From IMG/VR virus record IMGVR_UViG_3300033121_000902: a DNA stretch of 20,000 nt; one strand, written 5' to 3'. This document shows positions 2,055 through 20,000 of the stretch, piece after piece. Both the position numbers and the translations under genes were made by a program. Under the pieces are notes generated by a model, which worked only from the letters and a program-made list of their open reading frames with translations, was not told the origin of the DNA and ran no database searches. Within the stretch, counting starts at the first letter, position 1. Each line of letters begins with the position of its first letter. This DNA is from an uncultured virus (IMG/VR IMGVR_UViG_3300033121_000902). Its lineage: Duplodnaviria; Heunggongvirae; Uroviricota; Caudoviricetes.

Positions 2055-2456
2055 ATGTCGGACAATAATGAAATGTGGCTTAAGATGAGGGAGGTAACGG
2101 AAAAAAGAAATTCATCTGAGCCTTCCTTGCTCAAACTTCAAAGGGAACAAGAGTCAAAGAAAAGATTATTAGCAATAGCAGAAAAAAAACTAAAAACTTC
2201 TTTCATTCATCCTTTAAGTTGTTTTGAACAAATTTTTGGACATCTTTGGGGTTTTGGAAAGAAAGAATCTGAGTTGACAGAAGAACAGAAAAAAAATAGA
2301 TTTTTGTGGAATTCTTTAAGGTCTAGCGTGTTAAATAATGGTAACGGACAGATTAGAGCAATCCACAATGAGTTAAATCAATATACGGTTAACTGGAACA
2401 TGTATAAATATACACTGAAGACTATGGAGAACAATGATGGCAACAATAAAGAATAA
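2055..2456 (+). CDS. Hypothetical phage protein in the tail chaperone region
   Basis: 133-aa ORF with strong RBS AGGAGG (2043-2048), starting 2 nt after the upstream stop. No recognisable motif. Confidence 0.8.
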   Translation: MSDNNEMWLKMREVTEKRNSSEPSLLKLQREQESKKRLLAIAEKKLKTSFIHPLSCFEQIFGHLWGFGKKESELTEEQKKNRFLWNSLRSSVLNNGNGQIRAIHNELNQYTVNWNMYKYTLKTMENNDGNNKE

Positions 2457-3252
2457 ATTAGTTTTTAACACAAAAGACAAAGATGATAACGATTTAGAAT
2501 TATGTGTTAAAAAGCCTAATACTCAACAGAGCAAGGAACTTCAAAAAGTATATAACAAAAACTTTAAAGAAGCGTTAGACTCTGGTGCTATTTTGAGAGT
2601 TAAAGTAGAACAAGTAGCAAGAGAACAAAATATATGGAATGATGCTATACAAAAAGAGTTTGAAAAGTTGCAGACTCAAATATCAGATTTAGAACTAAAA
2701 CTTGCTAAAGGTGGAAACGCTGGTTTAACTCTGAAAAAAGCTAAAGAAGTTGCTGTAGATTTGGCAGGAAAGCGTGGTCAGTTAAGAATGCTTCTAGCTC
2801 CGAGAAATGAAATTGATGTTAATACAGCAGAAGCACAAGCTGAGAATGCTAGATTCAATTATATGGTTGCTTTATGTACTTATTTTAATTCTGGAAAGAA
2901 TGAAGGTAAGAACTATTTTACAGATTACGAAGATTTAGTAGAGAGATTATCCGAAAAAGCTTCTATGGATGCAGCTAAATATCTTGGATTCCTGATTTAC
3001 AATCTTGAACCAGATTATGAAATGAGCCTACCAGAAAATAAATTTTTAGTTGATTACGGTTTTGCTAACAAAGATGGTAGACTGATTAATAAAGATGGCA
3101 AGTTTGTTAACTTAGATGGTCACTTGGTTGATGAAAAAGGAAGATTGATAAACGAGAAAAACGAACTTGTTGATAAAGACGGTAATCTTCTTGACGATAA
3201 GGGTAACTATAAGGTAGACTTCAAACCATTTTTACCTGAAGACGACGAATAA
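2437..3252 (+). CDS. Phage protein, probable tail assembly chaperone with C-terminal 7-aa repeats
   Basis: ORF begins ATGATG at 2434/2437; GGAG at 2426-2429 is better spaced to 2437. Helical/coiled-coil body, immediately upstream of the TMP gene, overlaps the end of the previous ORF. Confidence 0.6.
   Translation: MATIKNKLVFNTKDKDDNDLELCVKKPNTQQSKELQKVYNKNFKEALDSGAILRVKVEQVAREQNIWNDAIQKEFEKLQTQISDLELKLAKGGNAGLTLKKAKEVAVDLAGKRGQLRMLLAPRNEIDVNTAEAQAENARFNYMVALCTYFNSGKNEGKNYFTDYEDLVERLSEKASMDAAKYLGFLIYNLEPDYEMSLPENKFLVDYGFANKDGRLINKDGKFVNLDGHLVDEKGRLINEKNELVDKDGNLLDDKGNYKVDFKPFLPEDDE
3064..3210 (+). repeat. Seven tandem 7-aa (21-nt) coding repeats
   Basis: ANKDGRL INKDGKF VNLDGHL VDEKGRL INEKNEL VDKDGNL LDDKGNY. 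Confidence 0.9.
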
Positions 3253-3272: not shown

Positions 3273-3319
3273 GGATAGAGTTTATTGCAATAATTTTGTA
3301 ATAGCTCTATCCTTTTTTT
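3273..3319 (+). terminator. Intrinsic terminator-like hairpin upstream of the TMP gene
   Basis: GGATAGAGTTTATTGCAA (3273-3290) pairs with TTGTAATAGCTCTATCC (3296-3312) with one bulge and two G-U pairs, followed by T7 (3313-3319). Confidence 0.8.
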
Positions 3320-3335
3320 GTTATATGAGGATTAC

Positions 3336-6300
3336 ATGGCTGGTTTTAACATAGTCGCACAAATACAGCTTCAAGCTCCAACAAATCTAAGTAGAATTGC
3401 TTCGCAAATCCGCAGCAGTTTACAAGGAATTAATGCGAATATTAACCTAAACTTGTCTTCAGGGGCACTTAATTCCATAAATAACCTGACAAGTTCTATC
3501 AATAATCTTAATGCTAGTATAAGAGGTTTGAATACTAGTACAGCTACACTCAATACAACTTTCGCAAATTTTGCATCAAACGCAAACAGATTTAATTCTG
3601 CTGTCAGTAATACAACAAGTAATCTTCAAGCACAAGCTGTTGCTGCTGTTGCTAATGCTAAAGCTATAAAAAGTGCTTCCGAAGCTGCTGAAGAATTCGG
3701 TAAAGCTGCTGGTTTAGCTGGTAGAAGATTCTTAGGTTTTACATTAATTGCTGGTAGCGTTGCTGGTACAATTGTTGCTCTTAAAAATGCTGTCACTGAA
3801 GCTGTTGCTTTCGAGAGAGAATTCATTAAAATCTCTCAAATAAACAATATTACAGCTGGAGAACTTGCTGCATTAAATAATGAAATCACAAGATTAGCCA
3901 CATCTTTCGGTGTTTCTAATAAAGAATTAGTTAATACCGCTGTTACTTTAAAACAAGCTGGTTTAAGTGCTAAAGAAATCACTTCAGCTATGGAAGTTTT
4001 AGCAAAAACAACTCTTGCTCCTAGCTTTGAAAACATAAGAGATACTACTGAAGGCGTAATTGCTATTATGTCTCAGTTTAAAATAGAAGCTAAAGATGTA
4101 GAAATAGCTTTAGGTTCTATTAACTCTGTTGCTAACTCTTTCGCTGTAGAATCAAAAGACTTAATTTCTGCTGTTCGCCGTTCTGGTGGAGCTTTCAAAG
4201 CTGTTGGTGGTGATTTAAATGAGTTTATTTCACTATTCACATCAGTTAGAGCTACAACTAGAGAAAGTGCAGAAAGTATCGCTACTGGTTTAAGAACTAT
4301 TTTCACAAGATTACAGCGTTCCGACACTGTAAGTTCATTGGAACAATTAGGAATTAACCTTCGTTACACAAGAGAAGAAGCAGAAGCTTTAGGACAAACT
4401 AATTTAGAGAAACAATTCGTTGGTGCTTATGAAGCGGTTCGTAGATTAAGTCAAGGTTTAGCAGGTTTACGCTCAACAGACCCAAGATATTCATCTGTTA
4501 TAGAGGAACTTGGTGGCTATCGACAAATTTCTAAAGCTATTCCTTTAATTCAAGAGTTTACTTTAGCTCAAAGAGCATTAGCTGTTGCTCAAGCTGGCGG
4601 AACATCTATCACTCAAGCTGCTGATAAAGCTCAAGAGACATTCTTAGTAAAGCTTTCAAAAGTTAAAGAAGAGTTCTTAGCTTTCGGTAGAGTAGTAGTA
4701 AGTAGCCAAGGATTTCAGTCATTTCTTGATACTGCCCTTAAACTAGGAAATGCTTTCGTAAGAATAGCAGATGCTCTCTCTCCTTTGATTCCTTTATTAA
4801 CAACATTAACCGCAATTAAGCTTACTACAAATTTTGCTTCATTCTTCACAGGTTTAAGCGAAGGTTTCTCTGGACGCGGACCTAAAAGATTCGCTACAGG
4901 TGGTGTTGTTCCTGGACATGGTAACTCAGATACAGTTCCAGCATTACTAACTCCAGGTGAATTCGTAATCAATAAAACAGCTGCTCAATCAATAGGTTAT
5001 AGCAATCTAAATAATATCAGTAAGTTTGCAGCTGGTGGGAATGTTAATTTTAAAGTTGGAAAGAAAAATCTTTCTTCTGATGATGTTTACTTCTTATACA
5101 AATTAGCGGCAGAGAAACAAAACGCTTCAAAATATTTATCTCCAGAAATTAATGGAGTTCCAAACAAGACTGGAATAAACAATCAAGCGTATTTAAAAAA
5201 ACTTTTTGGAGATGGCGATTACTCAACTCCAGCTAAAGTATTTTCAGCATTTGGTTTTCCAGGTAAAGGAAAAAACGTACAAAGCCTCAGACAGTTGAGA
5301 GACGACTTGGAAAGAAGTTCTGGATTTTTACAAGAGCGAAACACCCTTCTTGCTAAAGGTTCATCTTTAGTTCGCGGAAAAACTTTGTATGCTCCTTTTG
5401 GTGGAGACGGAATTGGTTATGTAACAATGCCTCTTGGCGGTGGAGAAAAAGGTAAGGTCGGTAGAGACACATTAAATGCAGGTATAAGAGTTAGAGAATT
5501 AAGTATTGATAATTTAGGTAAAAAGGTTAATCAGAATGCTAAAGGTTTACTAGAAAAAGCTGGTATAGAAAAGATTGTTGGAGCGGTTAATGTTTATGTA
5601 ATGGGTAGTCAGCCTACAGCAGAATTTTATAACGAAATATTAGGAGAAGTTAGTTCTAACATTCAAGGTATTTACACTAAGAAATTTGGAGCTTCACGTA
5701 CTTCTGCTTTTAATAAAAACCAGTTATCAACAATTAGTGGTTATTTATTTGAAAAATACATAGAAGGTATAACAGGTAAACCTACAGCTGGAGAAACATC
5801 AGATTTCGAATATACTAGAAGTAACTTAAATTCTGTACTTGGTCCTAAGTTTGACCAATTTGTATTTCCTTCACCAATCAAATCTAACTATATTGATTTA
5901 AAATCAAGTTATAGTCGTGGTAATGATTCTGATATTATTAAGAAATATATCAATTCAACATCAAGAACTGGTAAGCTATTAGAAGCTTTAGGACAAGCAC
6001 CAGCTAAGTTTGCTACAGGTGGAATAGTTCCAGGTAGCGGACACGGCGATACTGTGCCAGCAATGTTAACTCCTGGTGAATTTGTTATTAAAAAAGCTTC
6101 AGCACAAGCTATTGGTTACGATAATTTAGCTAATATTAATAGATATGCTAGTGGTGGTACTGTACAGATTAGACCTCCCGGAGGAGAAATTGGAGTTTTA
6201 ACAACTGAAAGCAATGCTGTAAAAAATTCTTATGATATAGTAATGCCTAAATCTGGTTTTTCTCAACAAAATATATCAAAATTTAACTTTAAGACTGGAA

Positions 6301-9300
6301 ATTATAAAGTACCAAATGATAATGTTGCTGTAAGAGCTAGAAATTATATTCCGTTTAACCAACCTCAAGCTGTTGAGTTTAGAAGTAAACTAGAACGTAG
6401 AATTATAGGAGATTTATCTAAATTATCTAAAGAATTTTTTCCTCAACAATCTATTAATGAGAGTTATTCATCAGAAATTTTAGATAAAACATTAGGAACT
6501 CAAGGTTTAGGAAGAATGTTTGAAGCTGTTTTGCAATTTGCTTTCGCAAAGCAAGCTCCTAGCAAAACTGGTGATATTTTTGATTTCGTTCCCCCTCATA
6601 GTGAAGGTTTATCTAGATTTATTGGTAAAAATATTTATGCTGACGCTAAATACGCAGATACTTATTTCAGCAGAGCTTCTATATTGGGCAAAGCTGTCAA
6701 TGCTATTAATGCTGGACTTCCAGGCTTTGATTTTACATACCCTCTTTTAACACAAAAAGAAAAAACTAATGTTAGTAAGGTAGCATCATCTAGTTTAACC
6801 TTATCAAGAGGGGATGAGCAAAGTTCATTAGCTTCTGACGATTTTAATAAAAAAATAATTCCAACTCCAAAGAAATATGCTGGTGGTGGAGTAGCTTCAT
6901 TATTAACTCCTGGAGAGTTCGTAGTGAATAAAGAAACTGCTAGTAGAGTTGGACCTACAGCTTTAAACTACATGAATAATAATGGTAGATTGCCACAGAA
7001 ATTTGCTACTGGTGGATTTGTAGTAAATAAAGCGTCTGTTTTTTCAGCATTTAAAAAAATACAAGATATTTCTGGAATAAATTTTAGAGATATAGGGGCT
7101 TTAAATGATATTAAATTAAGTAGCAGTCCAGCAGTTTCAAATGCTCTTGGAGGGCAATTATCTTCTGAGTATAGAGGTATTTTTTATCCAGTCACAAAAA
7201 GAGTTGTTATAAATCCTAATACTGTTAATAGCGAAGAATCATTATTAGAGACATTAAGTCATGAATTAGGACACTCTATTGATGCTCAAAGAGCTTCTGT
7301 TTTAGGTACTAAATCTTATTACGCATCAAATATTAATGGTAATACTTATCGACGATACGCTGATAGATATCAAGAAAGATTGGAGAAACAATATCCTCAG
7401 TTATACGCTAAAATAATTGCTCAACCTGAAAATTTAAGAAAATATACTTTCCTTCCAGAGGAAAATTTTGCTAATTTATTTGCTAGTTATATAGATGTAA
7501 ATACCAGAGACAGAACTGCTCCTATATTTGAAGATTTTGATAAAGATATTTTGTCAAAATTAAGAACTAAAAAATTTGCAGATGGCGGTTATGTAGAAAA
7601 TGCCGTAAAATTACTTAATTCTAGACTTCGTATTAATAACAGCAGAAAAATTTTCAATGAAGTTAAAGTTCAAGATTTTTATCCTGATGATAGTCCATTA
7701 GATGGGGTTGCTTACGCTAATAGAAATATATATCTAAATAATAGGTTAAATCCAACTCAATTACATGAAACATTATTGCATGAAATAGGACATACAGCAG
7801 ATTCATATTTTGCTGCAAATACTTATGGTATACCAGTTAATGAACTTAAACCTTCATATGCTACATCAATTAAAGGCAACTTATTTTCCGGGATAGTTAA
7901 CAGAGAATATATAAAACAAAGAAATTCTTTATTAGGTAATACTAATGAAAAGGCTAAAGAAACTTTAGGTAATCTATCTCAAAGTAGATATGAATATATG
8001 AAGTATCTTTTTAGAAAAGAAGAACTTTTCGCTGAAGCTTTCAAGAATTTTGCTTTAGGAGATGATACACATAAGAAAGCGTTTTTAAAAGCTTTTAAAG
8101 GTTTTAATAAAGGTGGTAAGTCTGAAGATACAGTTCCAGCTTTGCTAACTCCTGGCGAATTTGTTATTAACAAAGATTCAGCTAATCGTTTAGGTTCAAA
8201 TAGTTTAAACTATATGAACGCTACTGGTAAAATTCCTGGCTATAATCGCGGTGGAGAAGTAAGAAGATATACTAGTGCCGGAAGAGTTAATATTGGTAGT
8301 AGTAGAACTGCTGATGACTTTATTACTTCTGGGTACAATAGAAACTTATCAGTTTTGGATAATAGTGTTGCGTCTGCTATCAAATTGGACTCATTAACTA
8401 ATTCTTTAATAGAAATAACAAAAAAACATGTACTTTCTCTTAATGCTGGATTAACTGAACAACAAGCTTATAATGTTGGCGTCGAAAGAGTTAATGCTTT
8501 ATTAAAGACTAATTTTCAATTAATAGCAAATAATAAAGGTGAGCTAGTTGGTTATACAAACAGAGGATTTGCAAATCAGCCAGTTTCTAAATATTCTAAC
8601 GATTTAAGACAATCTCAACAGACAAATTTAAACCAACTTTTAGAAAAATTATCTAACGAAGCAGCTTTGAAACAAAATAAACCATCTTTTAGAGAAAGAT
8701 TATCTGGTATTGCAGGTTTATTAGCTAGCACTGGTGTAACTTATGCAGCTTCAGGTTTAGAGAGTTTAGCTGGTACTGCTGAACAAGCTGCTTTATCTGG
8801 TTCTGGTACTGCTTATAGTTTAGCTAAAGCTGGAAGTTCTGCTTTATCATCTGGAGCAACTATTGGTTTTGCTGGAGGTAACGTTTTTGGTCCTATTGGT
8901 GCTGCAATTGGTGGAACTATTGGAGCTTTATCTGGATTTATTACGGCGTTAACCGATGCTAATAGAGAAATATTAAATGCTAAAATTGGTTTAAATATCA
9001 AAAAGTTGGGAGAACAATTTGAAATATTAAATAAAGTTTCTTTAAGAGATATTTCTGTATCTAATATTAGCGTAGCATCAAGCGTAATTGGAGATTTATT
9101 AAAAGATTCTAGAAAAAGAAGTATAAGCGAAGCTACGACTTTAGGAGTTACAAATATACCTTCATTTATAAATGCCTCACAAAAAAATGATAGAGAAGTA
9201 TTCCAAAATAGTTTGCCAAACTTTATAGAATTCCTTAATAAGAATATAGAAGAACAAGCTAAGAATTTCGTTAGAAATCCAGAAAATGCTAATTTACAAG

Positions 9301-12300
9301 GTGCTGAATTAAGAGCTTCATTACCAACAGCGCAATTATTAGCTGGCAATAATGGTTTAAATCAGCAATTAGTAGATATTTTATCTAAATTTAGACCAAG
9401 AGAAGAAGTGGTAGCTGATTTACAAAAGCAACAATTACAAGCTATTCAAAGACAAAGAATACAGGCTGTACAAACAGAAGGAAGAATAGGAGTAGGTAGA
9501 GAACTTACAGTATTTGAAAGATTTTCATCTTCTATAGAAAATGTTTCTAGAGAAATGAATAAATTACAAATTGTCTCACAATCATTACAAGACGCTTTTG
9601 AAGGTGTCGTTTCAGTATCAAAGATAGCAATAAATGATAGAGCAGGTAACCTATTAGGAATAGGAAACCGTTTTGAAACAGAAAATGCTATAAATAATGT
9701 TGGGTCAGCATTCGGTTCTAATGGTTCTCAGTTAAGACAGTTTGGTAATGCTTTTGATGAAGTATCAAGAATTCTACCTGGAATTATAAGTCAAGTTGTT
9801 CAGCAAGGAGGGGGCTTACGAGATACAGAAACAACTGTAGATTCAAGAATCAGAAACCTTTTAACTGGTCAATTGGGTGGTGCAGCAAGAGTAGCAAACA
9901 ATCCAGAATTAAATGCTATTATTGGTGCTGTTTCAAGTCAAGCCTCAAACCTAAATTATGATAAACTTATCCAAGAAGGAAGACTCGATGCTGGTAAACT
10001 TATAGAAAAACTTTTATCTGATGCTGCACCATTCAAAGAACTTTTTAGCAGTTTAACAAAACAAATCGGAGAAGCAGCTAATAGATACAATGAAGAACTG
10101 GACAAACACCAAAAGCGTTTACAAAAAATCGGGGAACAGGAAGATAGAGTACGCCAACTCCAGTTGCAAGCTTTGCGGTTCTCCGTTGAGAGAAATCGTC
10201 CCGCTGCCTCTTCTGCTGATATTTTAAGCTTCCAACAGTTATCAGAACCCATAACTTTTAGAGCTAGAAGACTTGCAGAATTAGGTGGAGTTAATGGAAA
10301 TAATGCTGAAAACGCTTCAATATTAGGTTCTCAATTAAGAGATGTTAATTCTCGTATAGAATCTTCTCAAAGAAACTTACAAACAGCTTTTGATAGATTT
10401 GGATTAAATTCTCCACAGTACAAAGAAGCTGAACAAAGTTTGAGATTGCTAAAAAATCAATCAAACTCTTTAACTACAGCATTAACAGATTTAACAAATG
10501 CTGCAAAAGCTACAGCAGCACAGGAAAAACTTGCTATAATTAATAAAGATAGAGAAGGTAGATTATCATTTACAGAAAGATATATTACTAGTGATATAAC
10601 AAACAGAATTGAAACTCAGAGAAATTCTTATTTAACTTCTCAAGCTTTAAACCAAGGCAATTTATTATCTTTTAATGAAGAACAAAGAAGAGGAATACTA
10701 GATTTCTTATCTCAAACATCTGAAATTTCATTAACTGGATTTGGTGGTAAAAGAGGCAAAGAATTAAGAGATGATTTATTAGGAAATACAGCTTCGGCTT
10801 TAGGTCTTGGACAGCCTGTAAGAATTGCTAATGAAGGTGAACAACTGAGAGATGTTATTGCTAAAGCTTTTAATACTGCTATTGAAGCTGAAAGACAGTT
10901 AATAGATTCAAGAAGAGAACTTGATAATAATCTAATTTCTAATCTTGAAAGACAACAAAGAGAATTCTTTGACAGATTACTATTAAACAGCACTCAAGAT
11001 TTAAGAAGTCGTGCTGAAACCAATGTTTTAACCGGCGAATCTAGATTAGCTGAATCTAGAGTAGGTTTTGAAAACGCTAATAGATTAAGAAATTTAGGCA
11101 TTGTTAGACAGGAACAATTAGAAGCTTTGAGAACAGCTAAAGATGATTCTGGCAAAAATCTTTTAGAAAAATACGAAAGTAGTTTTAGATTAAGAAATCT
11201 AAATATACCTGAAAGAGTAAGGCAGATTATAGATAATAATCCAGATTTAGGAAGCGTTAATCGTGGAAATCCAGGTTTAGAACAATTAAGAGAAACTTTA
11301 GCACCATTAAGACTTAATGAAGATAAGTTAAATGAAATAATACGACTAGCTGGTAGCGTTAATACGGGTAATCCAACTAATAGACCAAGAATAGAACAGG
11401 TATTAGATAGAATCAGACAGCAAATTCCAGATGTTGTTAATACAAGAAATCAGTTAAGAGATAATACAGCAATACAAAATGAAGGTTTATCTGCTATAGC
11501 TAGAGGATTTTCTGATGGTACATTGACATCTCAACAATTATTAGGATTAGGAGAAGGTTTTAATCAGAATAATAGATTAGAAAACGCTTTTAATAATTTT
11601 CTAGATTCTACACTTGAATTAAGAAGATTAAAAGGTATTTTAGATAATTTTGATTTAACTATAAGAAATTTAAGTACAAGAATTAATGAAAATAGACCAG
11701 GATTTGTTGGACCTCCAACTCCAGGAGCAGGTTTAGCAACTGGTGGTATAATTGGTTCCAGCACACATTCTTCTATAGGTGGTCCTAGAGGAACCGATAC
11801 TGTACCAGCTTGGTTAACTCCTGGTGAGTTCGTAGTAAATAGAAAAGCTGCTCAAGCTAATTTAGGTTTATTACATGCTTTGAACGGCGGTCAACAAGGT
11901 GGTGGTGGATATTTTGCTTTAGGAGGTTTAGTAACTAGAGATAGATTATTTGCCGTTTTACAAAATTTAAGAGGTCGTAGAGCAAATAACACTGTTAATC
12001 CTTTTGGAGATGAAACAGGAGAACCAGATTTAGGATTTGCTGGTCAATTAGCTGATATTGCTGAAAAAGACGATGCTTTATTTAGAACTATATTTGAAAA
12101 TGCTAGAGTTGCAGCGTTCGGTTATTTAAAATTTAAACGAATGGAATTGTTTAATACACAAAGAGCTTTGGCTAATCCTGCTCAAAGAGGAGTTTTCGGA
12201 AACGATAGAGTAAATAGAAATAATCAATTGACTGAAAAATATAATGATTTATATAATGGTTTTTTGAATATTTCTCAAGAAAATACTCCTAATGAGACCG

Positions 12301-14045
12301 GAAAAGCTATAAATTATATTTCAAGATTACCAAAAGGTATAATAAATAATTTACGTTCTATTATTTATGGCAAGACTCAGCAGTTTGGTACTATTGACGC
12401 AATGAATGGTCAAATGTTGCAGAATTATTACATAAATACAACATTACCATATATTACTAATTATGTTAATTTAGCTAAAAGAGCTAGAGATGAGGCCGCA
12501 CAAAGATTACAAAATCCTGGAATTAATGAATTACAAAGAACAAATTATTCATTACAACAGAGAACAGCTGAAAGATTTATAGGAGATTTTGCGGACGCTC
12601 CTTTAGATAGAGCAGCTATAGTAAATGTTGCAGATAATTTGAATCCTCCAAATCAAGATAATATTAGAGCTAAATTATTAAAATATGCAAAATTATCATT
12701 AAGAGGAATAGTATTACCAAATTTTAGAGAAGGAGAAGATACTTTAAGAGTGTTCCCAGGATTAGCAGATTTAGGTGGAGCTATTGGTAATGTAGCAGGA
12801 AGAGAACAAGGTAGAGCAAACGCTGTTAATCAAGCTAGAAATGAAGCTGCTGAAGCTGCTGATTTATTAACTAAAAGAAAAGATAATGAATCAAAGTTAA
12901 ATTTTGAAGAATATATTACCGCTAACAAAAACGCCCTTTTAGTTAGAGCTAGGGGTTTTGGTGGAGATATACCAGAAGATTTCATTAATGAAAAAGCAGC
13001 TGCGTTACAGAATGCAAGAAATTTATGGATTACAAACTATAAAACTAGAAATGATTTAATTCAAAGAGGGGTTGGAGGTTTCAATCGTTCTAGAACTGAA
13101 GACATTTTATTTAGTGAATATATAAGATTAAAAGATAATTTTAACACAGACGGATTAGCAAAAGAATTATCTTCTCGTCAGTTTGCTCGTGCTACAGCTG
13201 AAATAAATCCTAATTTGATAGACGACATTAGAACATTTTTAAGAACAATACCAGAAGGTGATAGTAACGTATTTGATTCTTTCAAAAAGACAGTTGAAGA
13301 AAAAAGAAATCTTTCAAATACATTGCAGGCAGTAACCGATGAATTTCCAGGAGTAATAGGAAGGGCAGATGCTCCACAAGAATTATTGCAATTGCAAACA
13401 CAATATGCTAATTCTTTAGTTGAATATAATCGCTTATCTAAAAAAGCTTTTGAAAGAGTATCAGCTAAGAGATTTGGTATAGAATTATTTACAGATAGTT
13501 CAAATATAGCTGATTTCTTAAGATTAGCTAGAGGAGGTTCTGTTCCAGGAACAGGATTTGGAGATAGTGTACCAGCATTATTAACTCCTGGAGAGTTCGT
13601 AATCAATAAAGCTGCTGCTAGTGCTATTGGATTTAGTAATCTTCAGAAAATGAATAGTGTTGCTAAATATGCTGATGGAGGAAATGTTTCTCCTTCTTCG
13701 CCAAGCATATTCAATCAAAACGTTGGAGGTTTATTTGGAAGAATCAATGTCAATAATATTGGTGGAGAAACAGAAAAAGTTGGTAGTACATTCTCTAATA
13801 GCGTTAAAGAATTAAACTCTGTATTTAATACTTTTGCTGGATTTATTAGTCCTTTAGTTGAAGCTTTAAAGAATTTCCCATCAACAATAACAGGAAGTTT
13901 TACTCATAACGTAAGCGTTAATTTAAACGGTGCTGAAATATTAAAGAATTTAGAACCAACAATTAAAGAATTGGTTGAAAATCAAACAGCCGAAGTTTTA
14001 AGAAATTATATCAGAAATAATCTTTACGAAGCAGGGCAGGTATAA
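3336..14045 (+). CDS. Giant tail tape measure protein with inserted nuclease-like and metallopeptidase domains (3569 aa)
   Basis: ATG 3336 follows GAGGA (3327-3331) and is preferred over TTG 3318, which lies in the terminator T tract. N-terminal region (~3800-4600; AVAFEREF...ITRLATSFGVSNKEL...LKQAGLS...ESAESIATGLRTIFTRL) has the pattern of the TP901-type TMP core. Hydrophobic/Gly-rich segments and long coiled-coil regions follow. Canonical gene position. Confidence 0.93.
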   Translation: MAGFNIVAQIQLQAPTNLSRIASQIRSSLQGINANINLNLSSGALNSINNLTSSINNLNASIRGLNTSTATLNTTFANFASNANRFNSAVSNTTSNLQAQAVAAVANAKAIKSASEAAEEFGKAAGLAGRRFLGFTLIAGSVAGTIVALKNAVTEAVAFEREFIKISQINNITAGELAALNNEITRLATSFGVSNKELVNTAVTLKQAGLSAKEITSAMEVLAKTTLAPSFENIRDTTEGVIAIMSQFKIEAKDVEIALGSINSVANSFAVESKDLISAVRRSGGAFKAVGGDLNEFISLFTSVRATTRESAESIATGLRTIFTRLQRSDTVSSLEQLGINLRYTREEAEALGQTNLEKQFVGAYEAVRRLSQGLAGLRSTDPRYSSVIEELGGYRQISKAIPLIQEFTLAQRALAVAQAGGTSITQAADKAQETFLVKLSKVKEEFLAFGRVVVSSQGFQSFLDTALKLGNAFVRIADALSPLIPLLTTLTAIKLTTNFASFFTGLSEGFSGRGPKRFATGGVVPGHGNSDTVPALLTPGEFVINKTAAQSIGYSNLNNISKFAAGGNVNFKVGKKNLSSDDVYFLYKLAAEKQNASKYLSPEINGVPNKTGINNQAYLKKLFGDGDYSTPAKVFSAFGFPGKGKNVQSLRQLRDDLERSSGFLQERNTLLAKGSSLVRGKTLYAPFGGDGIGYVTMPLGGGEKGKVGRDTLNAGIRVRELSIDNLGKKVNQNAKGLLEKAGIEKIVGAVNVYVMGSQPTAEFYNEILGEVSSNIQGIYTKKFGASRTSAFNKNQLSTISGYLFEKYIEGITGKPTAGETSDFEYTRSNLNSVLGPKFDQFVFPSPIKSNYIDLKSSYSRGNDSDIIKKYINSTSRTGKLLEALGQAPAKFATGGIVPGSGHGDTVPAMLTPGEFVIKKASAQAIGYDNLANINRYASGGTVQIRPPGGEIGVLTTESNAVKNSYDIVMPKSGFSQQNISKFNFKTGNYKVPNDNVAVRARNYIPFNQPQAVEFRSKLERRIIGDLSKLSKEFFPQQSINESYSSEILDKTLGTQGLGRMFEAVLQFAFAKQAPSKTGDIFDFVPPHSEGLSRFIGKNIYADAKYADTYFSRASILGKAVNAINAGLPGFDFTYPLLTQKEKTNVSKVASSSLTLSRGDEQSSLASDDFNKKIIPTPKKYAGGGVASLLTPGEFVVNKETASRVGPTALNYMNNNGRLPQKFATGGFVVNKASVFSAFKKIQDISGINFRDIGALNDIKLSSSPAVSNALGGQLSSEYRGIFYPVTKRVVINPNTVNSEESLLETLSHELGHSIDAQRASVLGTKSYYASNINGNTYRRYADRYQERLEKQYPQLYAKIIAQPENLRKYTFLPEENFANLFASYIDVNTRDRTAPIFEDFDKDILSKLRTKKFADGGYVENAVKLLNSRLRINNSRKIFNEVKVQDFYPDDSPLDGVAYANRNIYLNNRLNPTQLHETLLHEIGHTADSYFAANTYGIPVNELKPSYATSIKGNLFSGIVNREYIKQRNSLLGNTNEKAKETLGNLSQSRYEYMKYLFRKEELFAEAFKNFALGDDTHKKAFLKAFKGFNKGGKSEDTVPALLTPGEFVINKDSANRLGSNSLNYMNATGKIPGYNRGGEVRRYTSAGRVNIGSSRTADDFITSGYNRNLSVLDNSVASAIKLDSLTNSLIEITKKHVLSLNAGLTEQQAYNVGVERVNALLKTNFQLIANNKGELVGYTNRGFANQPVSKYSNDLRQSQQTNLNQLLEKLSNEAALKQNKPSFRERLSGIAGLLASTGVTYAASGLESLAGTAEQAALSGSGTAYSLAKAGSSALSSGATIGFAGGNVFGPIGAAIGGTIGALSGFITALTDANREILNAKIGLNIKKLGEQFEILNKVSLRDISVSNISVASSVIGDLLKDSRKRSISEATTLGVTNIPSFINASQKNDREVFQNSLPNFIEFLNKNIEEQAKNFVRNPENANLQGAELRASLPTAQLLAGNNGLNQQLVDILSKFRPREEVVADLQKQQLQAIQRQRIQAVQTEGRIGVGRELTVFERFSSSIENVSREMNKLQIVSQSLQDAFEGVVSVSKIAINDRAGNLLGIGNRFETENAINNVGSAFGSNGSQLRQFGNAFDEVSRILPGIISQVVQQGGGLRDTETTVDSRIRNLLTGQLGGAARVANNPELNAIIGAVSSQASNLNYDKLIQEGRLDAGKLIEKLLSDAAPFKELFSSLTKQIGEAANRYNEELDKHQKRLQKIGEQEDRVRQLQLQALRFSVERNRPAASSADILSFQQLSEPITFRARRLAELGGVNGNNAENASILGSQLRDVNSRIESSQRNLQTAFDRFGLNSPQYKEAEQSLRLLKNQSNSLTTALTDLTNAAKATAAQEKLAIINKDREGRLSFTERYITSDITNRIETQRNSYLTSQALNQGNLLSFNEEQRRGILDFLSQTSEISLTGFGGKRGKELRDDLLGNTASALGLGQPVRIANEGEQLRDVIAKAFNTAIEAERQLIDSRRELDNNLISNLERQQREFFDRLLLNSTQDLRSRAETNVLTGESRLAESRVGFENANRLRNLGIVRQEQLEALRTAKDDSGKNLLEKYESSFRLRNLNIPERVRQIIDNNPDLGSVNRGNPGLEQLRETLAPLRLNEDKLNEIIRLAGSVNTGNPTNRPRIEQVLDRIRQQIPDVVNTRNQLRDNTAIQNEGLSAIARGFSDGTLTSQQLLGLGEGFNQNNRLENAFNNFLDSTLELRRLKGILDNFDLTIRNLSTRINENRPGFVGPPTPGAGLATGGIIGSSTHSSIGGPRGTDTVPAWLTPGEFVVNRKAAQANLGLLHALNGGQQGGGGYFALGGLVTRDRLFAVLQNLRGRRANNTVNPFGDETGEPDLGFAGQLADIAEKDDALFRTIFENARVAAFGYLKFKRMELFNTQRALANPAQRGVFGNDRVNRNNQLTEKYNDLYNGFLNISQENTPNETGKAINYISRLPKGIINNLRSIIYGKTQQFGTIDAMNGQMLQNYYINTTLPYITNYVNLAKRARDEAAQRLQNPGINELQRTNYSLQQRTAERFIGDFADAPLDRAAIVNVADNLNPPNQDNIRAKLLKYAKLSLRGIVLPNFREGEDTLRVFPGLADLGGAIGNVAGREQGRANAVNQARNEAAEAADLLTKRKDNESKLNFEEYITANKNALLVRARGFGGDIPEDFINEKAAALQNARNLWITNYKTRNDLIQRGVGGFNRSRTEDILFSEYIRLKDNFNTDGLAKELSSRQFARATAEINPNLIDDIRTFLRTIPEGDSNVFDSFKKTVEEKRNLSNTLQAVTDEFPGVIGRADAPQELLQLQTQYANSLVEYNRLSKKAFERVSAKRFGIELFTDSSNIADFLRLARGGSVPGTGFGDSVPALLTPGEFVINKAAASAIGFSNLQKMNSVAKYADGGNVSPSSPSIFNQNVGGLFGRINVNNIGGETEKVGSTFSNSVKELNSVFNTFAGFISPLVEALKNFPSTITGSFTHNVSVNLNGAEILKNLEPTIKELVENQTAEVLRNYIRNNLYEAGQV
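4890..5039 (+). repeat. GG/PGEFV module copy 1
   Basis: FATGGVVPGHGNSDTVPALLTPGEFVINKTAAQSIGYSNLNNISKFAAGG. Confidence 0.95.
5040..6008 (+). other. TMP cargo 1: PD-(D/E)xK restriction-endonuclease-fold-like domain with N-terminal extension
   Basis: GYLFE (5739-5753), SDFEY and YIDLK (5889-5903) give the E...D...DxK order of this fold. Paralogous to cargo 2. Confidence 0.55.
6009..6158 (+). repeat. GG/PGEFV module copy 2
   Basis: FATGGIVPGSGHGDTVPAMLTPGEFVIKKASAQAIGYDNLANINRYASGG; same 150-nt length as copy 1. Confidence 0.95.
6159..6875 (+). other. TMP cargo 2: PD-(D/E)xK restriction-endonuclease-fold-like domain
   Basis: GRMFE (6510-6524), IFDF and YADAK (6636-6650). Confidence 0.6.
6876..7016 (+). 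repeat. GG/PGEFV module copy 3 (shortened)
   Basis: YAGGGVASLLTPGEFVVNKETASRVGPTALNYMNNNGRLPQKFATGG. Confidence 0.92.
7017..7574 (+). other. TMP cargo 3: zincin metallopeptidase domain
   Basis: RGIFY...VVINP...LLETLSHELGHSID (HELGH 7260-7274) and distal EENFA (7458-7472) helix that could supply the third Zn ligand. Confidence 0.85.
7575..7589 (+). repeat. Lone GG motif separating the two peptidase domains
   Basis: KK-FADGG without the PGEFV core. Confidence 0.8.
7590..8102 (+). other. TMP cargo 4: second zincin metallopeptidase domain
   Basis: DGVAY...IYLN...LHETLLHEIGHTAD (HEIGH 7779-7793) and distal EELFAE (8019-8036). Confidence 0.85.
8103..8255 (+). repeat. GG/PGEFV module copy 4
   Basis: FNKGGKSEDTVPALLTPGEFVINKDSANRLGSNSLNYMNATGKIPGYNRGG; its second half most resembles copy 3 (LNYMNxxGxxP). 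Confidence 0.92.
8700..8951 (+). other. Gly/Ala-rich hydrophobic (glycine-zipper-like) segment of the TMP
   Basis: LSGIAGLLASTGVTYAASG...GATIGFAGGNVFGPIGAAIGGTIGALSGFITAL, typical of membrane-interacting TMP segments. Confidence 0.75.
11733..11927 (+). repeat. GG/PGEFV module copy 5
   Basis: LATGGIIGSSTHSSIGGPRGTDTVPAWLTPGEFVVNRKAAQANLGLLHALNGGQQGGGGYFALGG. Confidence 0.92.
13524..13682 (+). repeat. GG/PGEFV module copy 6
   Basis: LARGGSVPGTGFGDSVPALLTPGEFVINKAAASAIGFSNLQKMNSVAKYADGG. Confidence 0.95.
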
Positions 14046-14491
14046 TGGGTTTCAAAATTTTACATAACACAAACGCTCCATTATTAATTGGAGATGGAGG
14101 ATATCTGCTTTGGTATCCTGAAAGCGGAACTTATATTCCATTTTCAGGAACGATGAATCTATTCATTGGTGGACAAGGGGAAGAAGTTTCAGCTTCAATT
14201 CCTCTTTTTATATGTAATGAATTTGTTGAAAATTATTTAGACCTTTTTATTGAAGGGCAGGGAAATACTCCTGGAGCAATACCTTTAAATAAAACTTTAA
14301 ATTTGGTTATAAAATGTCCTGTTTCAAGAGATATTGATTTATATATCAAAGGTAAAGATACATCTATATCCAACGAAATTAATCTCTTTGTTAAAGGTGC
14401 TAATACTATTAGCAATAATTTAGATTTGGTTATGCCTAACGTTTACGATAATATTAGTAATACTATAAACCTATATATACATGGATTTTAA
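14045..14491 (+). CDS. Small probable tail structural protein with short beta-strand repeats
   Basis: 148 aa; the ATG overlaps the TMP stop (TAATG). Eight hxL[FYV]h motifs: MNLFIGG, IPLFICN, LDLFIEG, LNLVIKC, IDLYIKG, INLFVKG, LDLVMPN, INLYIHG. Confidence 0.75.
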   Translation: MGFKILHNTNAPLLIGDGGYLLWYPESGTYIPFSGTMNLFIGGQGEEVSASIPLFICNEFVENYLDLFIEGQGNTPGAIPLNKTLNLVIKCPVSRDIDLYIKGKDTSISNEINLFVKGANTISNNLDLVMPNVYDNISNTINLYIHGF

Positions 14492-15894: not shown

Positions 15895-18800
15895 ATGCCA
15901 TTATTAGGACTTAAGTTATTCGGATGTACTGTTAAAAATTTCTCTACTAATCTTGGTTGGGGAAGTTCAAAGAGTTCAGTGCGTGTTAGTTTAGTGCAAG
16001 ACACTTTATTAGGAGATTTATTCACTCCTCCTACTATCGGCACTCCTGTAAATATATCTTTTTATGCACTTAATTTTTCTGGTTTGCTGCAAAGGCATGA
16101 AGAAAGAAAAAGTGAGTCAGCAAATCCTGAATACGATATATTAATAGAAGACCCTAGAGAAATACTAGAAGGCACAGAAATTATAACCGGAGCTTATAAC
16201 GGTTCCACGTTTGGGGTTCCTAACTTAATTAATGCTTATGGTTATTGGGAAAATGTAGGTTTTGGAGGTTCATTAGTTAACGAAAGCGGAATGCCTTGGT
16301 ATCTAATAAAAAACGCTGTACAAACAATTACAGCCGGAACTAATGGTTCTTATGGTGGGCCATTAACATATAAAGGTGTTACTTATAAGCTAGATTTAAG
16401 TCAAATTCCAACAGTTCCAAATTATTATCGAATTCAAGGTGGAACATATACTAACTTAATGAGAGCTATAGAAGAAGTTTGCTCAGATAGCGGTTGTGAC
16501 TTTTTCGTAGAGCTTATTATTACTAATACTACTAGAACAATTAAAGTAAGAACTGTTAGTAGGAGGCTACAACCCGCTCCTGGAGTATTAACAAGTTTTA
16601 TCCAAACTTATACAAATAGTGGTGCGGCGAAAAGAAGTAGTGCTGGACTAGAAGCTAGAAATGAGATAACATCTTCATTTTTAGTTGGTGGCGAACAAAC
16701 AACAATGTTCGAAACATCAACAGGTATTCATCAATACTTTGGTTTAGATGTTTTAGGTTTACCTTTAGTTGGTAACGGCGTTGATTATTCAATGACTGCT
16801 ACTCTAAACTGTAGCGAAGTTTTTGATATATTAGGCACAAACGAATATGATACTGATATGCTGGAATTATTAAATGCTACATCAGATGTAACTACATGGA
16901 AATCTTATATACGTTCAAATAAACCAACTATTTCAAATTTAGTAGGATTAGATGGTATGCCTGGAGTTTTAGGAAATAATCCTCCTCAACCACAGGTTTT
17001 TAATGACCACGTATTAATGCGTGCTGGTAATCTAGCAGCGCACAATACAGCTATTGTCAGCGCGGAAACAGACTGGAAAGCTAACCGTATTTTCAGAATG
17101 GTACAGAAGAATGCTCATTTATTAGGAAAACAATTTTTAGTAGAAATACCATTCGTATTAGCTAAAGTAGAGCCTGATACTACAAAAATAGTATATAGTC
17201 ATGAACCTACTAACGCTGGTTACAAAGAAACTGGTTCTCCATTAAATTTGGACGAAGTTTTCCAAGATAATTTCAGTCCAGCGGCAGATGGAAGATATCA
17301 ACCGTTTTGTTTATTTGGAGATTTAGGAGATATAGATTTACGTAAAAATGATGTAGGAAGTTATGTTGTTGGTACGGATGGAGTTTACGTTAAATGCTCT
17401 GTTGACGAAAAAATTATTTGGCTTGACGAACTAACTCCATGTGTTCTAGTTCATGTAAACGAAGGCTTAGATAAACTTCCAACCACAGGAGTAGGAAACG
17501 AAAATCTTTTGCCTCAAGCTTTAGGAGGAAACAAAGCCGGTTTTGCCATTGCTGCCGCAAGAGGAGCAGCAGGGGCTTTTTCTTTATTAAAATCAACCCG
17601 ACCTCTTCCTGCTTATCCTACTGATTTTGCTATTCCACTTAAAAGTAATATACTTACTTATGGACCTTGGTATGCAATAGGTGGGCAAGGAAAGGTTCAT
17701 TATTCTCAAGACCCAGGTTTAGTACCTTGGAATTATGGTGGAACTACCATCATGAATCTAACAGGCTCGTCAAGAGTAACTGATGCTATTACATGGCAGC
17801 AATATGGGGAAACCGGAGATATAGAAATACCTGGAGCGCCAATAATTAACTTAGGCGATTTATTACAAGGTAACGGTCCAACTCTAACAAATATGGATAT
17901 TCAGTACGGAGCGGGTGGTGTAACCACCACTTATCGTTTCCATACTTTTACTAATAAAACAGCTTTTGGTAACTTAGGGAAGACTCAGTTTGATAGAATT
18001 AAAAAATTAGCTTTGAATAATCAAGCTATAAGAAGAGATGTAAGACAAGCTTTTAATAGATTACTTCCTCCTTCTAGTATAGCAAATGCTCAAATCAGCT
18101 TTTTACAGAATGAGATTAGTAAAGAATTAGGTATACCAGAAGCTCCTAGAAGTCCGCATGGTATAATCACAGCATGTTCTTACGAAGACGCTTCAGATAT
18201 AAATAAAAGAAGAGTGGGTTGTACGACAGCTAGTACAGTGGAAGCTTTACGTAGTTGGCAAGCTACTGATGTAACTATCAGCGGAACTCAAATTAGTTAT
18301 GAAGAAGTTTCTTCTATGTCTATGGATGGTTTTTTTAGACCTTTTAAGACAAAATTAAAAGAGGTTGGAACTTTTGATGATTATACATCAACTTATATTA
18401 ATCCTCTTAATTACGGAAGTGGAAACACGGTATTAGATTTAGACCCTTTTCAAAATGGTAATGATATTGACATTTTACTAGTTGATGGTGGTCAATATTC
18501 AATAGACGCACATAATTATATTAGTGGAAGTTTAAATGAACAAAATCAAAAACCTTTAGCTTTAAGAGCGCCATTAATATTAAATGGTTGGGGTTATTCT
18601 ACTGACGATGCTTGGGTTCCAAATGAAAATCCCACAACTTTAGACGGAAATATAGAAACTAATTATTTAAAGAAAAGTCATCATTGGAAAACTGGTCCGC
18701 TAGAGACATTATGGGATGACCAAAGAGGGGTTTGGACATCTTTTGGCAATTGTTTAGGAGTATTAACGTCTGATTGTGGTCCTGGTAGTGGAGTGAAGAT

Positions 18801-20000
18801 AGATTTATATTCATCTTACTCCGATGTTATTAATGGAAGAAGAAAAAATAGGACTGTATATAATTTTTCAAGCGGGACTTTGACTAGCGGTACTAGAGTT
18901 ACAGCAAGCTTTATACCTGAAGCTAAAAGCTGGTATATAACAAATACGCATGGTAATGCTAGCGGTGGTAGCGGAGGCACTCCAACCTCTTATGGAGATT
19001 ATGGTTGGGTTCAATATTCAGATGGTGTTGGAGGGTTTTTAGCGGAAGACGGTTTTGAATATGATGATGTCGCTAACAAATTGATTGTTGGGGATATAAG
19101 AATAAGTAATCAGATTGCTTCAGAAAATAGAATGGTTTATATTGAGACAGATGGAGATTTAACTATAAATCAACTTCTTTCGTCTGGAAGAGTACCGTAT
19201 ATTAACGGCTCTAATACTTTAAGTGATAATGCCGGTTTTACATACGATAACGCTATAAATAAATTAACTATTGGAGATGCAAAGCTAAGTAATCAAGCTT
19301 CATCCGAAAACAGAATTATATATATTAATACTTCTGGAGATTTATTAGATAATGGAATGTTAACTCCAACTAGAGTTCCTTATATAAACGCTTCGTATAC
19401 TCTTAGTGATAACGCAGGTTTTACATACGATAATGCTATAAACAAGTTAACTATTGGAGACGCAAAGTTAACTAACCAAGCGTCATCCGAAAATAGAATT
19501 ATATATATTAATACTTTTGGAGATTTATTAGATAACGGAATGTTGACTCCAACTAGAGTCCCTTACGTAAATGCATCGTATACTCTTAGCGATAACGCTG
19601 GATTTGTATATGATAACGCTTTAAATAAATTAACTGTTGGAAGTTTAGTTATTAGTAATGAAGCCGCATCAGAATATAGAATGTTATATATAGATACACT
19701 AGGAAATGTGTTAAACAACGCAATGTTGACTCCTACCAGAGTAGTTTTTGTTGATAGCGATGGTACTTTGGTTGATGATGCTGGCTTTGAGTATGATTAC
19801 TCTTTAAATAAATTAACTATTGGAAGTTTAGTAATTAGCAACGAAGCAGCATCAGAATATAGAATGTTGTACATAGATACAGTTGGAAACGTATTAAATA
19901 ACGCAATGTTAACTCCTACTAGAGTGGTTTTTGTTGATAGCGATGGTACTTTGGTTGATGATGCTGGCTTTGAGTATGATTATTCTTCAAATAAGTTAAC
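15895..20000 (+). CDS. Large tail tip/baseplate hub protein with C-terminal fibre-like repeats, 3'-truncated (>1368 aa)
   Basis: ATG at 15895, 3 nt after the upstream TAA. My translation (MPLLGLKLFGCTVKNFSTNLGWG...) stays open to the window end, which explains its absence from the ORF track. LMRAIEEVCSDSGCDFFVEL (16456-16515) resembles the helix-strand segment of Tal/gp27-like hubs. A Gly/Ser linker at 18952-18984 precedes the repeats. Confidence 0.8.
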   Translation, partial: MPLLGLKLFGCTVKNFSTNLGWGSSKSSVRVSLVQDTLLGDLFTPPTIGTPVNISFYALNFSGLLQRHEERKSESANPEYDILIEDPREILEGTEIITGAYNGSTFGVPNLINAYGYWENVGFGGSLVNESGMPWYLIKNAVQTITAGTNGSYGGPLTYKGVTYKLDLSQIPTVPNYYRIQGGTYTNLMRAIEEVCSDSGCDFFVELIITNTTRTIKVRTVSRRLQPAPGVLTSFIQTYTNSGAAKRSSAGLEARNEITSSFLVGGEQTTMFETSTGIHQYFGLDVLGLPLVGNGVDYSMTATLNCSEVFDILGTNEYDTDMLELLNATSDVTTWKSYIRSNKPTISNLVGLDGMPGVLGNNPPQPQVFNDHVLMRAGNLAAHNTAIVSAETDWKANRIFRMVQKNAHLLGKQFLVEIPFVLAKVEPDTTKIVYSHEPTNAGYKETGSPLNLDEVFQDNFSPAADGRYQPFCLFGDLGDIDLRKNDVGSYVVGTDGVYVKCSVDEKIIWLDELTPCVLVHVNEGLDKLPTTGVGNENLLPQALGGNKAGFAIAAARGAAGAFSLLKSTRPLPAYPTDFAIPLKSNILTYGPWYAIGGQGKVHYSQDPGLVPWNYGGTTIMNLTGSSRVTDAITWQQYGETGDIEIPGAPIINLGDLLQGNGPTLTNMDIQYGAGGVTTTYRFHTFTNKTAFGNLGKTQFDRIKKLALNNQAIRRDVRQAFNRLLPPSSIANAQISFLQNEISKELGIPEAPRSPHGIITACSYEDASDINKRRVGCTTASTVEALRSWQATDVTISGTQISYEEVSSMSMDGFFRPFKTKLKEVGTFDDYTSTYINPLNYGSGNTVLDLDPFQNGNDIDILLVDGGQYSIDAHNYISGSLNEQNQKPLALRAPLILNGWGYSTDDAWVPNENPTTLDGNIETNYLKKSHHWKTGPLETLWDDQRGVWTSFGNCLGVLTSDCGPGSGVKIDLYSSYSDVINGRRKNRTVYNFSSGTLTSGTRVTASFIPEAKSWYITNTHGNASGGSGGTPTSYGDYGWVQYSDGVGGFLAEDGFEYDDVANKLIVGDIRISNQIASENRMVYIETDGDLTINQLLSSGRVPYINGSNTLSDNAGFTYDNAINKLTIGDAKLSNQASSENRIIYINTSGDLLDNGMLTPTRVPYINASYTLSDNAGFTYDNAINKLTIGDAKLTNQASSENRIIYINTFGDLLDNGMLTPTRVPYVNASYTLSDNAGFVYDNALNKLTVGSLVISNEAASEYRMLYIDTLGNVLNNAMLTPTRVVFVDSDGTLVDDAGFEYDYSLNKLTIGSLVISNEAASEYRMLYIDTVGNVLNNAMLTPTRVVFVDSDGTLVDDAGFEYDYSSNKL
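19051..20000 (+). repeat. 183-bp (61-aa) tandem coding repeat, five full units plus a partial sixth
   Basis: GFxYD motif begins at 19051, 19234, 19417, 19600, 19783 and 19966. Example unit: GFTYDNAINKLTIGDAKLSNQASSENRIIYINTSGDLLDNGMLTPTRVPYINASYTLSDNA. Confidence 0.97.

Follow-up and report, generated by a model that had tools for sequence, protein, structure and literature searches.

We describe a short repeated element, here called the junction module, in the tail tape measure protein (TMP) whose gene lies in a 20,000-nucleotide stretch of DNA (the window) from an uncultured virus of the Caudoviricetes (IMG/VR record IMGVR_UViG_3300033121_000902). The TMP gene lies on the plus strand at 3318..14045, starts with TTG at 3318 and has 3,575 codons. 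Profile matches identify its product as a TMP: Pfam PF10145 (PhageMin_Tail) scores 92.4 bits over residues 188–400 against a cut-off of 33.2, TIGR01760 scores 98.7 bits against a cut-off of 28.8 and at least 12 PHROG TMP families match. An Atlas look-up, which we take as a lead only, returned TMP clusters exclusively, at 0.88. The database copy of the protein (P0002), encoded on a contig of 74,784 bases, is 3,569 residues long and 100% identical, its ATG start at 3336 being six codons further in. G+C content is 29–39%. No match was found by blastn of the TMP gene against phage records, and relatives of the protein's N-terminal region occur on contigs of metagenome-assembled genomes labeled SAR202 and Flavobacteriales.

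Paired di-glycine motifs form the edges of a repeated module

The initial annotation of the window drew attention to thirteen [FYL]xxGG motifs at 4890–13682, proposed to mark domain boundaries. All of them lie within the TMP open reading frame (ORF), and their number, positions, pentapeptides and order are as described: exactly 13 are present in the protein, starting at residues 525, 570, 898, 943, 1187, 1229, 1420, 1596, 1642, 2806, 2866, 3403 and 3451 (nucleotides 4890 to 13668). Shuffling the residues of the TMP gives 4.57 ± 2.10 motifs, with 13 reached in 2 of 5000 shuffles and a maximum of 11 in a separate set of 2000. The longer form [FYLM][ANS]xGGx[VIA] is seen 12 times, where 0.25 are expected and the maximum in 5000 shuffles is 4. 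Phe, Tyr or Leu stands at −3 in 13 of the 40 GG dipeptides of the protein, and a basic residue usually precedes the motif, as had been remarked (Lys or Arg at −1 in 9 of 13).

Twelve of the 13 motifs are paired, 42–60 residues apart, around a near-invariant core, so that they belong to a larger module as its edges and are not signals that stand alone. They constitute both edges of six copies of a module of 47–65 residues. The first edge reads [KRG]-Φ-[AN]-x-G-G-x-[VI]-P-G (Φ, hydrophobic) and is followed by a short G-rich loop. The near-invariant core, DTVPA[ML]LTPGEFV, leads into a two-part helix ending L...N, and the second edge reads [YF]-A-x-G-G-x-V. LTPGEFV is invariant in all six copies, which are in register. 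Module 1 (residues 525–574; 4890..5039) runs from FATGG through LTPGEFV to FAAGG and matches the module hidden Markov model (HMM) with E = 5e-32. The others, located by motif pattern together with the HMM, are module 2 (residues 898–947; 6009..6158; FATGG to YASGG), module 3, a short form (residues 1187–1233; 6876..7016; YAGGG to FATGG), module 4 (residues 1596–1646; 8103..8255; FNKGG to YNRGG), module 5, a long form (residues 2806–2870; 11733..11927; LATGG to FALGG) and module 6 (residues 3403–3455; 13524..13682; LARGG to YADGG). These coordinates, like those of all features of the TMP given below, refer to the plus strand. The TMP frame is the only one in the window that the HMM matches.

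At the DNA level the six copies are 63–78% identical, with synonymous differences inside the invariant LTPGEFV. That the protein is conserved while the DNA has diverged to this extent implies that selection acts on the protein. A profile built from 1,148 modules of 224 relatives shows one conserved stretch that extends from the aromatic or other Φ residue of the first edge to the valine after the second GG, and the flanks outside the module carry less than 0.5 bit of information. Conservation at the first edge is F 49%, A 76%, x, G 99%, G 90%, x, V 64% or I 26%, P 64% and G 62%; in the core it is D 98%, T 83%, V 90%, P 95%, A 96%, M 70%, L 98%, T 84%, P 92%, G 100%, E 97%, F 88% and V 97%, with L 93% and N 97% further on; and at the second edge it is Y 45% or F 37%, A 49%, x, G 98%, G 97%, x and V 75%. 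Val or Ile occupies the position two residues past GG in 90% of first and 84% of second edges, and in 12% of second edges the residue next to GG on this side is Pro.

The thirteenth motif is unpaired. It is the solo edge FADGGYV (residues 1420–1426; 7575..7595), which lies between two embedded peptidases. The motif had been regarded as the minimal boundary element, a description that holds for the edge: among 225 proteins, edges occur alone or in tandem in 290 cases, compared with 1,782 that belong to modules. The degenerate RRYTSAG noted at nucleotide 8262 (residue 1649) is also confirmed, as part of a tandem edge, RRYTSAGRV (residues 1649–1657; 8262..8288), nine residues after YNRGG; the nearest relative (P0003) has RFATAGPV here. 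The nine-residue tandem GGxVQ[KR]FAxGG recurs in relatives, where solo edges are often in tandem.

Inserts are exchanged at the modules

As had been claimed, the inserts run from motif to motif: segments of 323, 239, 186, 171 and 532 residues each fill the whole space between one motif and the following one. Insert 1 (residues 575–897, 323 residues; 5040..6008) has no family match and has relatives by phmmer in 20 of 224 giant TMPs. Insert 2 (residues 948–1186, 239 residues; 6159..6875) likewise has no family match, with relatives in 8 of 224, and it stands at other positions in other TMPs. The 532-residue insert (residues 2871–3402; 11928..13523), again without a family match, has a counterpart in a single one of the 224 relatives, P0003. 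The 186- and 171-residue inserts are the two peptidases described below.

Comparison with relatives shows that inserts are exchanged exactly at the modules. Collinearity with six relatives ends at residues 947–965, the end of module 2, and with two relatives, P0009 and P0010, at residue 1235, the end of module 3; collinear homology with two relatives ends at residue 1398, and the homology that relatives share towards the C terminus resumes at residues 3393–3416, at module 6. Inserts change position between TMPs. Homology with relatives thus breaks at the modules, and related peptidase domains of other TMPs start 1–7 residues after Φ-xx-GG, which bears out the earlier suggestion that the motifs are domain boundaries: they are a real boundary element.

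Two observations concern the insert repertoire. With the nearest relative, P0003, identity is 82% along the full TMP and only 37% across the two-peptidase cassette (6855–8297, compared with P0003 residues 1174–1663), which means that the peptidase cassette was replaced, or diverged fast, between otherwise close phages. Precomputed Pfam annotations list ADP-ribosyltransferase (PF03496) or EF-hand families in other module-bearing giant TMPs (P0017, P0027, P0028, P0060, P0097 and P0099; P0030 and P0098), indicating a broad repertoire of inserts.

Two zincin peptidases are carried as inserts

Zincin metallopeptidase 1 (HELGH; residues 1234–1419, 186 residues; 7017..7574) gives weak matches to Pfam DUF6782 and to a PHROG metallo-protease and is present in 9 of 224 relatives. 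Zincin metallopeptidase 2 (HEIGH; residues 1425–1595, 171 residues; 7590..8102) gives weak matches to Pfam M78 and ATLF, and phmmer finds it in 1 of 224 relatives. Of 225 giant TMPs, 24 match a peptidase profile, with 31 domains in all. A Φ-xx-GG sequence ends within 30 residues upstream of 20 of these 31 domains, and within 7 residues of 13. Stand-alone homologues of peptidase 1 (114–364 residues) with flanking motifs were not found in a search limited to shared five-residue words.

In the AlphaFold2 (AF2) model of residues 1180–1660, built from a 12-row alignment, peptidase 1 has predicted local distance difference test (pLDDT) values of 70–91, and its first helix begins five residues past GG. 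A fold search of the Protein Data Bank (PDB) with this 481-residue model matches peptidase 1 to the lethal-factor catalytic domain (1yqy_A; Z 11.0, root-mean-square deviation 7.7, 202 residues aligned) and, with Z scores of 6–7, to minimal zincins, PPEP and Wss1. As modeled, the fold of peptidase 1 is that of a generic zincin, and nothing in it points to a preference for Gly-Gly. The HExxH domains are ruled out as a general processing enzyme, being found in 24 of 225 relatives compared with 225 of 225 for the module.

The module is widespread and confined to TMPs

A search with the six-copy profile recovers 24,013 protein-cluster representatives at E ≤ 0.001, 1,270 of them at E ≤ 1e-30; the best 150 of the 24,013 were viewed individually. 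Up to 11 copies, in a protein of 7,794 residues, occur among the matches listed. Every one of the 225 giant TMPs examined has the module, in 3–10 copies, the first starting at a median residue of 509 and the last leaving a median of 123 residues to the C terminus. Wall hydrolases are part of many TMPs that have the module.

The module is specific to TMPs. The 14 module matches in five near-complete phage genomes fall, in each genome, within a single long ORF. Among cultured phages 191 records match, nearly all of them annotated as TMPs; Gordonia, Arthrobacter, Mycobacterium, Klebsiella, Synechococcus and Cellulophaga are among the hosts. In the cyanomyophage S-SCSM1 the protein with the module carries a virion-protein annotation. 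Two matches are annotated as 'endolysin' and 'lysozyme', and a reading of these as free lysins was rejected on finding that their genes occupy the TMP position. No Pfam or NCBIfam model covers the module, two modules searched against Pfam gave nothing even at E ≤ 10, and we found no description of the module in print. Judged by these profile searches, few elements of tailed-phage proteins that lack annotation are as widespread.

Comparison with λ gpH and other tail proteins

Searched against PDB sequences, the six-copy profile aligns both of its edges to residues 730–785 of the λ TMP, gpH (8iyk_H; E = 2.8e-5), and also matches mycobacteriophage Douge gp16 at two places. The λ copy reads KFH-FATGG ... 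GEFVF ... LMRG-YATGG-YV, with FATGG at 733–737, and directly follows a hydrophobic Gly-rich stretch that has a Gly run at 709–721. On this alignment the window module is very probably homologous to gpH 730–785. As with module 1 of the window, the λ module follows a hydrophobic segment, and it precedes a C-terminal tail, but gpH has one copy and no inserts, whereas the window TMP has six copies bracketing five inserts. Pfam PF09718 covers gpH residues 627–701 only, and the module lies outside it.

In a report on λ (PMC12617516), gpH is described as being cut after tail assembly into gpH* (~78 kDa, roughly residues 1–710) and gpHC. The cut is placed at ~690–730 with no protease named there, and residues ~690–817 are not resolved by cryo-electron microscopy (cryo-EM). 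The masses that we calculate for gpH residues 1–710 (77.7 kDa) and 1–737 (80.0 kDa), set beside the reported mass of gpH*, would put the λ cut at or just before the module.

The module also occurs in shorter TMPs with fewer copies than that of the window (1,699–2,142 residues). Gordonia phage Bosnia gp17 has modules at 947–1007, 1624–1677 and 1966–2022, plus solo edges, and Douge gp16 has modules at 963–1028 and 1411–1472, only its residues 1658–1699 being resolved by cryo-EM. At residues 1236–1400 of Bosnia gp17, the solo edges FASGG and YASGG stand directly before what by eye is a LAS/M15-like motif (SGxR ... HxxGxAxD); there is no Pfam match in this region at E ≤ 0.01.

Other tail proteins resemble the window TMP in part. 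Phage T5 pb2, like the λ protein, is a TMP that is cut: cleavage after R1127 (FVPR↓AEGGMMYPG), the only TMP cut that is mapped, yields pb2* and pb2C. The cut is made in tail assembly, where a hydrophobic stretch meets a small metallopeptidase segment, and by eye the new N terminus has the form AEGG..PG...GE. T5 has a single site, however, and the cut falls before GG. The module HMM does not match pb2 residues 1105–1180, for which hhalign returns a probability of 0.06%. Processing of TMPs, including the loss of internal segments, is described as common (PMC1796659). In the Tal protein of TP901-1 and Tuc2009, a Gly-rich joint, NGGGNSGGGD, that links the structural and catalytic domains is cut (PMC11409707), but Tal is a tail-associated lysin with another motif and no conserved core.

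Two further systems share the delivery of enzymes. The polyvalent proteins that phages and conjugative elements encode are likewise large injected multidomain proteins with mobile effector-like domains and a lethal-factor-like HExxH zincin-like metallopeptidase, and their peptidases have been proposed to process the polypeptide (Iyer et al. 2017, PMC5512222). The window TMP has the same trait, a lethal-factor-like HExxH zincin domain (HELGH, HEIGH) in a large multidomain protein. In contrast, that paper never mentions TMPs and reports no conserved junction module, and the peptidase of the window is an optional insert. Gp96 of Thermus phage P23-45, a TMP of 5,002 residues fused to the virion RNA polymerase, resembles the window protein in being a giant TMP by which an enzyme enters the host. 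It differs as the one giant TMP shown to be full-size in virions (PMC10770324). A pattern search of gp96 found no junction module, strict edge motif, GE[FYW][VI] or HExxH. Since gp96 lacks the module, it has no bearing on module-bearing TMPs. The database record for gp96 carries the note 'contains metalopeptidase domain', despite the absence of HExxH by pattern.

Predicted structure of the module

An AF2 model of module 2 with its flanks (83-row alignment) has a mean pLDDT of 64 and a predicted template modeling score of 0.30. Its sole regular element is the two-part helix after GEFV, with pLDDT of ~80–86, in which the conserved G separates two short helices. Strands are absent, and both edges are coil with pLDDT of 50–70. 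In the model of residues 1180–1660, pLDDT is below 50 for peptidase 2, for modules 3 and 4 and, at ~40, for the solo motif. Burial of the GG motifs in a folded module, which would argue against the cleavage or sorting role first suggested for them, is not seen: both models leave the motifs in low-confidence coil. The module is thus predicted to be flexible and unburied as a monomer, and an ordered oligomer would be compatible with these models.

Remaining parts of the TMP and flanking genes

Three further parts make up the rest of the TMP. The N-terminal ruler core (residues 1–524; 3318..4889) has a hydrophobic stretch at its end, immediately before module 1, and is common to 141–214 relatives per 50-residue bin. 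The long central segment (residues 1647–2805, 1,159 residues; 8256..11732) is found in 28 of 224 relatives, and the C-terminal tail (residues 3456–3575, plus the stop codon; 13683..14045) in 71 of 224. Within the central segment, a glycine-zipper-like hydrophobic stretch at residues 1831–1890 (8808–8987) gives weak C19orf12-like and DUF1269 matches and may be where the TMP inserts into a membrane.

The ORFs flanking the TMP gene are assigned to no PHROG or Pfam family, and only their order and sizes fit a tail gene block, with overlapping ORFs at 2055–2456 and 2434–3252 upstream and large ORFs downstream. The two upstream ORFs overlap by 23 bases and occupy the usual position of tail assembly chaperones; the second ends in eight-residue repeats (DG.L[IV]N.KG) and has a weak DUF3659 match and one chance-level LAKGGNA. 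Immediately 3′ of the TMP gene, a 148-residue ORF at 14045–14491 consists mostly of a periodic [IL][DN]L[FYV][IV].G, repeated every ~17–20 residues, and has no family match. A downstream ORF of 465 residues has no relatives in IMG/VR. The ORF that begins at 15895 and runs off the window contains fibre-like tandem repeats of ~60 residues at 19190–19998, RVPYINASYTLSDNAGFTYDNAINKLTIGDAKL.NQASSENRIIYINT.GDLLDNGMLTPT, also without a family match.

What the joints may be for

We propose that the modules would act as standard joints between the ruler segments of the TMP and exchangeable inserts, here two zincin peptidases and three inserts without a known fold. A conserved partner may dock to the invariant core, either in tail assembly or after ejection. 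The likeliest use of such a joint would be limited proteolysis, with the cut at an edge or close to it, as in λ gpH; inserts freed in this way would be able to leave the tail lumen before the DNA does. From the comparisons made here, that at least some copies of the module are cut seems to us a serious possibility, though we stop short of calling it probable. A more sweeping form of the proposal is rather unlikely. In it the module would be a universal TMP maturation signal, cuts at its edges would make the giant TMP an effector polyprotein whose swappable inserts are loaded into the tail lumen and injected ahead of the DNA, and the same signal would set the cut that converts λ gpH to gpH*.

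Several points weigh against limited proteolysis. The λ cut is placed only within ~40 residues and may fall in the Gly-rich stretch before the module. The T5 pb2 cleavage region was rejected as a homologue of the module on the HMM and hhalign results given above. The 13-residue invariant core exceeds the needs of a simple cleavage site and fits binding or oligomerization equally well. An outside protease would probably have poor access to internal joints of a TMP enclosed in a finished tail tube. A cargo enzyme can work within an uncut TMP, as does that of P23-45 gp96. The peptidases of the window TMP are optional inserts that do not accompany the module generally, and the other ORFs of the window match no protease family. 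Finally, a search of 21 related module-bearing phage contigs, six of them at least 90% complete, detected JAB peptidases in 0 of 21, C48 in 0 of 21, C39 in 0 of 21 over the cut-off (with one weak match) and M23 in 1 of 21, the adenain and African swine fever virus (ASFV) families not being searched. On these contigs, phage-encoded JAB, M23, C39 and C48 enzymes are rejected as the general partner. Host proteases are possible cutters.

Nearly as likely as limited proteolysis is a structural or assembly joint that is never cut. The module would then dock the TMP to a chaperone, to the tube lumen or to other TMP copies (as a trimer or hexamer), the edges would be short strands or hinges and the inserts would stay attached. 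Conservation fits this well, since the GG edges are no more conserved than the core and conserved positions flank each GG on both sides; the nine-residue tandem resembles a repeated strand motif, and the strict TMP specificity of the module and the lack of a protease partner in the 21 contigs point the same way. P23-45 gp96, which keeps its enzyme in a full-size TMP, could be added to this list but for its lack of the module, which makes it uninformative on module-bearing TMPs. On the other side, the monomer model gives the edges no stable fold, the module falls in parts of λ gpH and Douge gp16 that cryo-EM left unresolved and the λ copy adjoins a real cut.

The initial annotation saw in the motifs an analogy to Gly-Gly proteases, with each [FYL]xxGG a minimal site cut directly after GG by a ubiquitin/SUMO, adenain, ASFV or C39-type protease or by the TMP's own HExxH domains. 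Such a cut would fit GG conservation of 90–99% at both edges, inserts that begin directly after GG and a solo motif that alone divides two peptidases. GG-directed sites, however, would be expected to be constrained on the P side only, with a permissive non-Pro P1′; the adenain and ubiquitin consensus has a hydrophobic residue at P4, and Pro at P1′ blocks deubiquitinase-type cuts. The edges of the module do not match this description. Their constraint is not confined to the P side, with Val or Ile prominent at P2′ (90% and 84%), Pro occurs at P1′ in 12% of second edges and the hydrophobic residue of the motif sits at P5. In addition, the contig search produced no GG-type protease of general occurrence, the HExxH domains are restricted to 24 of 225 TMPs and have a generic zincin fold, and T5 is cut before, not after, GG. 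The analogy therefore lacks support, in view of the protease missing from the 21 contigs, the conservation past GG and the prolines after it, and we do not favor cleavage directly after GG, which is improbable.

The tail cluster of λ encodes a JAB peptidase, gpK, without an assigned target (Iyer et al. 2006, PMC1779556), which is non-structural (PMC10721106). We infer that gpK may cut gpH after FATGG. Cutting of the gpK type would not be general, however, because none of the 21 related contigs has a JAB peptidase.

The possibility that the module is a small LysM-like β-α-α-β cell-wall-binding unit, which positions TMP enzymes on peptidoglycan after ejection, is remote. By eye, G-E-F-V ... I-G ... 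L...N ... Φ-x-x-G-G-x-V resembles what we take to be the LysM pattern, AF2 predicts two short helices broken at a conserved G, and wall hydrolases occur in many of the TMPs concerned. Against this, two modules gave no LysM or other Pfam match at E ≤ 10, the PDB profile search returned no LysM chain at E ≤ 1 and the low-confidence model contains no strands. Even less credible is that the repeats are recombination scars or substrates, conserved DNA that promotes cassette exchange and encodes a functionless peptide: mosaic breakpoints do coincide with modules and inserts do change position, but the DNA divergence of 63–78% identity with synonymous differences in LTPGEFV leads us to reject it, and the peptide is kept across 24,013 cluster representatives and very different hosts.

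TMPs with built-in enzymes, and cleavage of TMPs, were already known; what is new is the element that marks the joints. The module provides a concrete candidate for the unmapped cut in λ gpH and for finding its protease, and it offers a rule by which giant metagenomic TMPs may be parsed into ruler segments and insert cassettes. Should the joints prove to be uncut, the module would still be a conserved docking element for some partner. In either case, its joints are natural junctions at which to study what phages inject with their DNA.

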